Source of the DNA: Octopus vulgaris
Taxonomy: Eukaryota
NCBI GenBank assembly: GCA_951406725.2
Contig: OX597814.1
Coordinates: 152,644,001-152,708,000 of the forward strand
Length of the DNA stretch: 64,000 nt
Reading direction: 5' to 3'
Numbering within the stretch: position 1 is the first letter of the stretch; each line of letters starts with the position of its first letter. This document shows, piece by piece, positions 33,501 to 61,253 of this stretch. Under the pieces are notes generated by a model. The model was not told where the DNA came from. It made no database searches and saw nothing but the letters and a program-made list of their open reading frames with translations. The translations under genes and the position numbers were made by a program.

Positions 33501-36500
33501 TATTAAGATTGAAAAAGTCAACCCTGTTTGAAGAAAATTTTGAACCTGCGTTTGCACCCACTAAGCAAATTTCATTCCCACACTTATGATACTACCTCTC
33601 TATCTAGCAGGTCAAGCAACCATGTAGAAGCCACTTTTTAGACACAAGCTGTTTTAATTCAATGCATAAGTTTTTGTAGTTGAGTGGTTCCCAGCAGTGG
33701 TTCCAAACCCTTTTATTTAAATGAGTTTTCCTATACACGCCTTTTAATATGCTTATTCTTATGTATATATATATATATATATATATATATATATATATAT
33801 ATAATGTATGTGTGTGTCTGTGTGTGTATATTCTTTTATTCTTTTACTTGTTTTAGTCATTTGACTGTGGCCATGCTGGAGCACCACCGTTAGTTGAACA
33901 ACTCAACCCCTGGACTTATTCTTTGTAAGTTTAATACTTATTCTATTGATCTCTTTTGCCAAACTGATAAGTTACAGGGACATAAACACATCAACATCGG
34001 TTGTCAAGTGGTGGTGGGGAGACTAACACAGACACACACACACACACACACATATATATAATGGACTTCTTTCAGTTTCATTCTACTAAATCCGCTCACA
34101 AGGCTTTGGTCAGCCCGAGACTATAGTAGAAGACACTTGCCCAAGGTGCCACACAGAGGGTTGAACACAGAACCATGTAGTTGCGAAGCAAGCTTCTTAC
34201 ATGGATTTCCAGCACTACCTTTGCAGACCCCAGGTTGGGAACCTCTGTTGTCGTTAAATCCTTGGTCAACCTCAAGACTTTTGACATCCATAACAATAGG
34301 TGTTAATTTTTTTTCTAGGCCTAATGTATCCCAGACTACATTATCCTATATGTCCCTACATTTTCGGTTTAGGACCAGAATGAAAGAGATTTGGCTGCTA
34401 TTTCTAGCAGGTGAAGTGAATACATAAAGCCTTTCTCGGCTAATATTGCATAGGAAGTATAATAACATAAGAGCAACCAGCAAAAAATATGAAAAACTCT
34501 GCTTTCTTTAGTTTGTGGATCATTAACAGAAAATATATTTTTAGACATATTCTATCAACAGACTCATACAACTACAAAGTACCAGACATAGCTTCCCATA
34601 ACTCCTTTTTTATACATAAGATGGAATAAGTTGGATGAAAATTTTCTAAAATTACATTTCTTTAAAGGATTTTTGATTAGAAAATGTTGAAAACTGTTTT
34701 TAACATTTTAAAAAATTTACATTAAAAATTTAATTATTTCAGCTGTGTGGTAAGTAGCTTGCTTACCGACCACATGGTTCCGCGTTCAGTCCCACTGTGT
34801 GACACCTTGGGCAAGTGTCTTCTAGTATAGCCTCGGGTCGACCAAAGCCTTGTGAGTGGATTTGGTAAACGGAAACTGAAAGAAACCCGTCGTATATATG
34901 TATATGAATGTGTATGTGTGTTTGTGTGTCTGTGTTCGTCCCCCCCCAACATTGCTTGACAACTGATGCTGGTGTGTTTACGTCCCCGTAACATAGCAGT
35001 TCGGCAAAAGAATAAGTCCTGGGGTCGATTTGCTCGACTAAGGGCAGTGCTCCAGCATGGCCGCAGTCAAATGAAACAAATAAAAGAGTAAAAGAGTAAA
35101 AGAATATATAAACTTATATCACTATAAATATTAGATATTTTTTTTTATGGAGAGGGGGTTTAAACTAAATAGCATTGTATAATATTCATTACATAAGGAT
35201 TTCAATAATTAAATACTAAGGATACTTTTAACCCTTGAGTATTTAAATTGACCATAAGCAGCCCAAATATTCTGTTTTATGTTCAAATTGACTATTACTG
35301 TCCTCTCACATCTCTCTTACAATGATATTCTAAAAATATATAGTCACATCATTGAAATCTTGAAGCTATGAGATAATGCAGGTTTAATTCAAAATGATGC
35401 AAATAAATAAACATTTATTCGCATACTAAGAGGTTAAATACTAAAGCTGAATACTAAAGGGTTAAATTAATGAACAAAAATACCAGAAATATCATTTTCC
35501 TAAGAATATCCATTATGCTGACATGATATTAAATAAAATATAATTACAGTAAACCTGTGAGGTGAATAACCATTAAAAATAGATGCAGTTTAGATTACCT
35601 GAATTCGACGCGCACTGGTCAAAGCAGCATAAGTAGTTTTTAATGCTTTAAACATGAAATAGACCATGATACGGGTCACCTTGTTTACCAATGCAATACA
35701 TGGGAAAACGAATTCAGGGAGCAAGAGGATTCCAAAGGCGGAAGCAGTCACGAATATAACGTAAATGATGAGATAATAGACAGCCCAGCTAGCTGAGTAG
35801 ATTGAATCAAGGCAGCTCGTTAGCCACTGTGAATGAAGTTCATGGCTGAAATAAATGGATTTTCAAGAGAAACTGAGACTGAAAATTTACATACACATGA
35901 AGATGTATTTTTACATATCTTCTATGCATGCACATATATGTATACATATGCACATGTGTGTGCGTCTGTGTTTGTATATATATATATATATATATATATA
36001 TATTGATACACACACACACATGCATACATACAAATACAACAAAATTTTCATATCTGCTTTTCCATGCTTGCATGGATCAGGCAGAATTTGTTGAGGCAGA
36101 TTTTCTACAGCTAAATGCCCTTCTTGGTGCCAACCCTTACATATTTCCAAGCCAGCAAGGGACAATTTCTCCATGGTCAGACATGTTTTCATGAAAGTTT
36201 GGAAGTAGATGACACTTCTTGTATGATGGTGGTGCTCCTTTACAACTATTGCCTGGTAGTTGTGTGTGTCCTTGTCTTGACAAGGACACACACACATACT
36301 AAAGCCCTAAAGCCATTCACAAGGATTTGGTTGATCCAGGACTATAATAGAAGACACTTGCCGAAGGTGCTGCACAATAGAAATGAACCCAGAACAATAT
36401 GGATGGGAGACAAACTTCTTAACCACATACATTTACACACATATCTTACCATTTTTGTCCTTTTCCCCTTCCTACAATTAGGTTTTTATTTAACTGAAAG

Positions 36501-61253: not shown

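Follow-up and report, generated by a model that had tools for sequence, protein, structure and literature searches.

The window examined here, a stretch of 64,000 nucleotides of the Octopus vulgaris genome (assembly GCA_951406725.2, contig OX597814.1, positions 152,644,001 to 152,708,000), holds the middle part of a gene assigned to the ABCC4/MRP4 transporters, which is read from the minus strand. It was examined together with flanks of 150 kb (upstream) and 50 kb (downstream), 264 kb in all. The public protein P0001, mapped on the 264 kb by tblastn, matched seven coding exons upstream and 18 downstream of a cassette of four equally long exons, A to D (Table 1), each in one place. The gene spans about 150 kb, starts about 77 kb beyond the end of the window and finishes about 9.8 kb before its start. 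A preliminary description of this region had argued that the copies are not tandem whole genes, as no ABCC exon lies among them and the downstream exons are single, and the mapping of P0001 agrees with it. In a genome-wide search, a constant TM exon had one match among at least six candidates scored.

Table 1 Features of the octopus locus (positions relative to the window)
Feature	Position	Strand	Remarks
Cassette exon A	35599..35845	(-)	247 nt; last in transcript order
Cassette exon B	47318..47564	(-)	247 nt
Cassette exon C	53183..53429	(-)	247 nt
Cassette exon D	61007..61253	(-)	247 nt; TM5-TM6 of ABCC4 TMD1; first in transcript order
Common downstream exon	30768..30878	(-)	111 nt, phase 0; joined to the chosen copy
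Common upstream exon	78308-78433 (outside the window)	(-)	126 nt; ends in phase 2
11 further single-copy coding exons	468..28373	(-)	NBD1, linker and most of TMD2; tblastn and splice sites
Direct repeat on either side of exon D	58637-59046 and 65035-65441		411 nt, 94%
Intronic ORF	25265-25978	(+)	Transposase/reverse transcriptase-like, by eye
Intronic ORF	7590-7889	(+)	As above
Intronic ORF	5030-5365	(-)	As above
Intronic ORF	11431-11859	(+)	As above
Intronic ORF	24072-24398	(-)	As above

The host gene

The best PDB match of the octopus protein (1336 aa) was human ABCC4 with 1305 bits, compared with 878 bits for MRP1, and the alignment covered human residues 6-1297. The architecture is that of a short ABCC protein, TMD1-NBD1-TMD2-NBD2 without TMD0, and the Pfam domains ABC_tran and ABC_membrane were found on three of the five ORFs tested. 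In a tree of the constant regions, built from ABCC4-like rows only and with no ABCC1/5 outgroup, the octopus gene fell inside a mollusc and annelid clade (support 1.0), sister to vertebrate ABCC4 (0.999). Its topology mirrors the species phylogeny, and the octopus branch is long. By these comparisons, the gene belongs to the ABCC4/MRP4 subfamily, and its products would be predicted to export conjugates, prostanoids and cyclic nucleotides in an ATP-dependent manner. The changed residues in TM5/6 described below would lower the assignment of an MRP4 substrate range but not that of orthology.

The four cassette exons

A minus-strand scan for stop-free exons of 240-255 nt, bounded by AG and GT and ending with an R-I-Q-like motif, yielded four exons, all of exactly 247 nt, entered in phase 2 and left in phase 0; they are the same four that had been described previously with this length, phase and boundaries. 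Each consists of one base and 82 stop-free codons read from base 2. The gap-free identities (of 82 residues) were 15 for A/B, 27 for A/C, 24 for B/C, 47 for C/D, 29 for A/D and 23 for B/D, and the first four values equal those that had been counted by hand. Invariant in A-D are the columns E2, L3, L8, L41, P43, S77, R80, I81 and Q82. A profile made solely from bivalve and gastropod sequences recovered exons A-D alone in the 264 kb, with E values of 3e-15 to 9e-10 (next match 0.22), and therefore the set of four is not due to chance. Between the flanking exons there were 55 open candidates with AG-GT/GC boundaries; the 12 significant ones all overlapped A-D, and octopus-only, mollusc-only and combined profiles found no fifth copy in the 264 kb. 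A search of the 2.8-Gb genome with exon D, in which at least 16 candidates were scored (12 at E ≤ 10), ranked D, C, A and B first, and the next of the scored candidates had an E value of 0.78. Pfam recognized none of the four cassette peptides (0/4) as an ABC membrane segment. The hydropathy peaks of exon B were 1.25 and 1.05, compared with 1.6-2.4 in A, C and D; of the four copies, B diverges most and is the least hydrophobic, but it is also the one best conserved between species.

Exon C has 191 of 247 nucleotides in common with exon D and shares with it the acceptor-side intron flank (79% over 331 nt); it is the youngest duplicate and the sister of D. The substitution rates between C and D (dN 0.25, dS 0.34, dN/dS 0.75) reflect weak constraint or divergence after duplication. 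Synonymous sites are saturated among A, B and D. The direct repeat around exon D could promote further duplication of exons or the formation of long duplexes of RNA. Dispersed repeats in both orientations are numerous throughout the cassette introns, and the intronic ORFs in Table 1 resemble, by eye, fragments of DNA transposases or LINE reverse transcriptases.

Use of the copies in gene models

A profile of the four peptides retrieved three proteins among 2160 candidates, namely the ABCC4 models of O. sinensis and O. bimaculoides and a partial Argonauta model, and the clusters of the matched proteins comprised ten proteins, seven of them full length. Automated isoform models are usually based on RNA-seq junctions. 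All seven full-length octopus models, which are automated, carry exactly one copy between identical flanks, as expected from the mutually exclusive use that the preliminary description had proposed. The O. sinensis isoforms X1, X2 and X3 contain D, A and B, respectively (82/82 each), and so do X1, X2 and X3 of O. bimaculoides (73, 72 and 80 of 82); the sole full-length O. vulgaris model uses D (82/82). The value of 80/82 for exon B lies above the 95% identity of the constant regions of O. sinensis and O. bimaculoides, and exon B is also present in the partial Argonauta model (37 of 48 aligned residues). Exon C was found in none of the seven full-length octopus models. The unspliced ORFs P0229 and P0230 from a separate assembly are identical to C at 57 and to D at 47 of 82 residues and group with C (100/72); as they are intact and closer to C than to D, exon C seems to have been kept open in a second lineage. 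The earlier proposal of at least four transporters from one gene is therefore borne out by annotation for three (A, B and D), whereas the fourth, C, is intact and conserved but unannotated. The feature itself is real, and it very likely functions as a mutually exclusive cassette.

Another O. vulgaris model, P0005 (956 aa), begins with an ATG located in the last intron bases (30879-30884) before the common downstream exon and is probably a 5'-partial or intron-retaining artefact.

Splicing choice and reading frame

Each mRNA would lead from the common upstream exon through one 247-nt copy to the common downstream exon. After double inclusion, the frame of the second copy stops at codon 2 in four of four cases, all off-frame readings of all copies stop within 12 codons, and skipping of all four copies results in a stop at codon 29 of the next exon. 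The introns measure about 4.7-17 kb, and those between the copies (7577, 5618 and 11472 nt) rule out steric exclusion. Incompatibility with U12 introns was ruled out as well, every donor being of the ordinary GT-AG type, and weak donors do not distinguish the cassette, as a G at +5 is also missing from several constitutive donors. A search of 600-nt and 400-nt flanks in this one genome for docking and selector sequences, confined to perfect helices, found no common site; one of 16 region pairs exceeded the 10% control level, with -18.2 kcal/mol (best control -19.5 kcal/mol). Because the introns are too long for steric exclusion, the choice of copy would be under regulation, with tissue or condition as the probable determinant, and nonsense-mediated decay would remove mis-spliced forms. 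Of 19 C. elegans clusters containing non-3n exons, 14 depend in part on nonsense-mediated decay (PMC4165533), which makes decay a reasonable safety net to assume for the octopus cassette.

The cargo pocket encoded by the exon

The cassette exon aligns to human ABCC4 residues 305-387. Exon 8 of human ABCC4 begins within codon 304 and matches it in phase and position. In mammalian MRP4 structures, F324, L363, L367, F368 and R362 contact PGE1, sulindac or DHEA-S; F324 (TM5) and L363, L367 and F368 (TM6) form a hydrophobic wall facing W995, and R362 binds the sulfate of DHEA-S (PMC10202912 and bioRxiv 2022.12.22.521501). The preliminary description had placed TM5/TM6 pocket residues in the exon, and the alignment to human ABCC4 does locate these five contact positions within it. 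The residues at positions 324/362/363/367/368, with a register that is uncertain by one residue near 324, are L,S,F,F,F in D, T,A,D,V,L in C, W,G,S,S,S in B and W,T,R,Y,F in A; each octopus copy keeps at most one of the five human residues. F156, R946, G991, Q994, W995 and R998 are kept in octopus, and the TMD2 residues R946, Q994, W995 and R998 in all six octopus isoforms aligned. Owing to the differences between the copies, one wall of the pocket varies in charge, bulk and polarity on a fixed backbone. A swap would exchange TM5 and TM6 with the outer loop between them, which form the TMD1 wall of the cargo pocket; TM11-12, the anion-binding wall, would stay unchanged, as would the two ATP-binding domains. 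The isoforms may thus be organic-anion pumps with differing cargo ranges.

The octopus residues aligned to human H152 and F211 are N and Y, respectively, and H152/F211 are kept in the other molluscs aligned. These changes suggest that the constant TMD1 part of the octopus pocket has also shifted.

The same swap in bivalves and gastropods

The cassette had been described beforehand as independently evolved and probably confined to cephalopods. This view is not supported, given a swap with the same boundaries in the orthologous gene of 20 bivalve and gastropod species. In the regional search, of which the best 120 of 3552 matches were considered, ABCC4-like proteins of bivalves and gastropods stood near the top, and their clusters contained many isoforms of equal length whose differences were confined to the segment matching the cassette exon. 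All 22 tabulated species had 2-11 variants of 81-85 residues with shared flanks, which were identical in 20 species and differed on one side in the remaining two; the range of 2-11 variants also holds for the 20 bivalve and gastropod species. Eleven variants were counted in Biomphalaria glabrata, eight in Physella, seven in Dreissena, four each in Mytilus edulis, Ruditapes, Pomacea, Argopecten and Mizuhopecten, and two in oysters. A tandem layout in bivalve and gastropod genomes may be presumed from these protein isoforms. From clusters with more than 15 members (41, 34, 19 and 18), 15 members were taken. The variant count omits isoforms without an anchor (P0189, P0215, P0216), internally shortened exons (P0164, P0234, P0235), the N-truncated or redundant P0200, P0214, P0239, P0241 and P0242, older oyster versions and assemblies, a separate C. 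virginica locus (P0206) and fragments.

The three full-length oyster proteins from transcript assemblies that were checked all carry the ancestral-type exon, and Solemya, Gigantopelta and Owenia are represented by one listed protein each. Word-limited or clustered searches found no squid, cuttlefish or nautilus copies. The statement that vertebrate ABCC4 has a single copy of the exon is in accordance with one version of the segment in ten of ten vertebrate isoform sets, which consist of proteins only.

Evolutionary history of the array

In each of the 20 species outside the cephalopods, one or more exons of the ancestral MRP4 type are retained, with the contact residues mostly intact in all five positions. 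The exon tree was computed from 83 columns and 84 rows and has long branches, which can draw divergent exons together, and near-duplicates (5 rows, then 13 more) were omitted from the trees. The ancestral-type exons formed a clade (100/96) with no octopod member. The octopod copies formed one clade (98/89) within a divergent clade (97/98), where they belonged to a subgroup (89/85) common to bivalves and gastropods. The constraint that all gastropod variants form one clade was rejected (p-AU 0.0015), which indicates that the array is older than the bivalve-gastropod split, whereas a constraint placing the octopods outside the divergent clade was not rejected (p-AU 0.10). One divergent type has 30.5% identity between bivalves and gastropods and about 18% to other types, and this shared type is on average the nearest group for exons B, C and D (24-25%). 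Exon A has a mean identity of 27% to three deuterostome rows vs 21% to the shared divergent type. An ancestral-type exon elsewhere in the octopus genome was searched for with an oyster segment, which gave, among at least seven candidates scored, exon D alone (E 0.71). In scallops, mussels and pulmonate snails, the ancestral-type exon has been duplicated separately (P0030/P0035, P0246-P0248, P0144/P0024, P0174/P0179).

A single molluscan origin of the array appears likely. An ancestral-type exon and at least one divergent-type exon would predate the bivalve-gastropod split, and lineages would later have gained and lost copies. Octopods would have lost the ancestral-type exon, and one divergent type would have re-expanded into B, A and then C/D. 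By the tree, the octopod-specific part is only this expansion to four copies (98/89). Our preferred reading, to which we assign a probability of about 0.6, is a mutually exclusive exon cassette in a single octopus ABCC4 gene that was inherited from an early-mollusc array.

Alternative explanations

It is unlikely, though deserving consideration, that the octopod array is independent, i.e. that a single fast-diverging exon was duplicated in octopods and converged on the bivalve/gastropod array, with mechanism and purpose unchanged. Such an origin is consistent with the single octopod clade (98/89), with a tree in which the copies stand outside the other divergent exons (p-AU 0.10), with the long octopus branch in the constant-region tree and with MRP1 arrays being reported as independent in each phylum (Yue et al. 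2017, as cited in PMC6071210 and PMC7434440). The gene, the exon and its boundaries are nevertheless the same in all three classes, the best tree nests octopods among the divergent types (89/85, 97/98), and the array is older than the bivalve-gastropod split. Less probable still is that the cassette diversifies a trait other than cargo, such as the exposed TM5-TM6 outer loop as a parasite or toxin target, trafficking or the binding of partners, or that some isoforms have low activity or behave like channels. In insects, loops of ABCC2 act as receptors for toxins, and in CFTR the pore is lined by TM6. The divergence extends over the whole exon (15-29/82 between the older copies) beyond the pocket positions, copy turnover resembles that of immune loci (11 copies in Biomphalaria, 8 in Physella), and exon B combines weak hydrophobic peaks with small polar residues at pocket positions. 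However, the five known cargo contacts lie in the exon and differ in every copy, and the wall on the other side of the pocket does not vary among molluscs, as would be expected if export continued.

We find it very improbable that D alone is functional and that the other copies are rare or decaying, the extra models being splicing noise. The only full-length O. vulgaris model does use D, C is unannotated, and the C/D dN/dS of 0.75 could be read in the same way, but all four copies are intact and synonymous sites are saturated among A, B and D. Moreover, exon B is conserved at 80/82 in O. bimaculoides, above the 95% of the constant regions, and is kept in Argonauta, and C has an intact counterpart in a separate assembly. 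An assembly artefact or tandem fragments of whole genes, which the repeat-rich octopus introns might suggest, can practically be dismissed: there is no N within the 264 kb, the closest pair (C/D) still differs at 56/247 nt, and the other exons are all single, as illustrated by the constant TM exon (one match among at least six genome-wide candidates). The recurrence of A, B and D in the assemblies of two other species refutes an artefact of assembly.

Comparison with known exon arrays

The mutually exclusive exon clusters of Drosophila MRP encode membrane segments. The octopus cassette resembles such MRP1-type arrays in its tandem homologous exons of equal length in the gene of an ABCC pump, of which one would enter each mRNA. 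It differs from them in that the gene is ABCC4 and not MRP1/ABCC1, that the array is apparently common to mollusc classes, that the introns are as long as about 4.7-17 kb and that no docking/selector pairing was found in the 600/400-nt flanks. Yue et al. (2017, RNA Biol 14:1399) are cited (PMC6071210, PMC7434440 and PMC9013439) for MRP1 arrays that arose independently in helminths, annelids and molluscs, and the molluscan 'MRP' of that study might be the ABCC4 gene described here. Exons 13A-D of C. elegans mrp-1 are likewise four homologous, equally long and mutually exclusive exons of an ABCC transporter, validated by RT-PCR (PMC4165533). According to that source, they have 156 nt (3n), are 50-60% identical and are separated by introns of 154-435 nt, whereas the octopus exons have 247 nt (3n+1) and are 18-57% identical. 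With a length of 3n+1, mis-splicing shifts the frame, unlike in the case of the 3n exons of mrp-1. Vertebrate ABCC4/MRP4 has the same architecture and the same TM11-12 cargo residues, but one version of TM5-6, and no octopus copy keeps the full set F324/R362/L363/L367/F368. The mutually exclusive exons 6a/6e of coq-2, which remodel the active site and switch the substrate in helminths, annelids and molluscs (PMC7434440), are a proven model for the substrate switching that the cassette may perform. In contrast to the pump with its 2-11 fast-changing variants, coq-2 is an enzyme with two conserved states.

In a literature search at the level of listings and abstract openings, no description of a mollusc ABCC4 cassette was found, and PMC3228551 contains no passage on MRP; published tables of predicted mutually exclusive exons may include the locus. 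Exon arrays in MRP genes are already known, and the isoforms are already present in automated annotation. What sets the cassette apart from known arrays is that it occurs in ABCC4 and not MRP1, that it spans classes, that its copies have diverged much further and that octopus has apparently lost the ancestral pocket.

Implications

A wider reading, which we offer tentatively and at somewhat less than even odds, is that the mollusc ABCC4 cassette is a birth-and-death repertoire of cargo pockets predating the bivalve-gastropod split, with a housekeeping pocket and lineage-specific ones, the ancestral pocket being lost in octopods. If so, one gene could hold a repertoire of up to 11 or more pockets, of which the ancestral MRP4 pocket would serve housekeeping export and the lineage-specific ones would handle dietary, algal and man-made chemicals. 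Octopods may then lack a conventional MRP4 and have three or four new pumps made from one gene by tissue-specific splicing, and the apparent loss of the ancestral pocket raises the question of which pump exports cAMP and prostanoids. ABCC pumps are central to the clearance of toxins and pollutants in molluscs and are usually counted per gene. If a single ABCC4 gene gives rise to 2-11 pumps that differ in their pockets, expression data collected per gene would mask the relevant variable in oysters, mussels, scallops and Biomphalaria, the schistosome host snail. The cassette would also be a natural experiment on the open question of how the TM5/TM6 wall sets the polyspecificity of MRP4, in which dozens of naturally occurring pocket walls sit on one and the same backbone and are ready for assay.

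Further molluscan ABCC4-like models

The Biomphalaria glabrata ABCC4-like isoforms X1-X12 (P0171-P0183, P0047) comprise eleven distinct TM5-6 variants of one gene. This repertoire is the largest seen, and several of its variants pair one-to-one with those of Physella. P0021 (Mya arenaria, 1341 aa) and P0041 (Gigantopelta) are single-model ABCC4-like genes with a divergent-type exon; P0021 lies on a different contig than the Mya cassette gene and is perhaps a gene duplicate fixed for one variant. The models P0164 (Dreissena X6), P0234 and P0235 (Mya X4 and X5) leave the exon early and in frame, with the loss of TM6 or of both helices, and are either noise or regulated inactive forms. The exon-sized ORFs P0254, P0255 and P0257, which are about 30% identical to divergent clam variants, appear to be further, unannotated cassette types.
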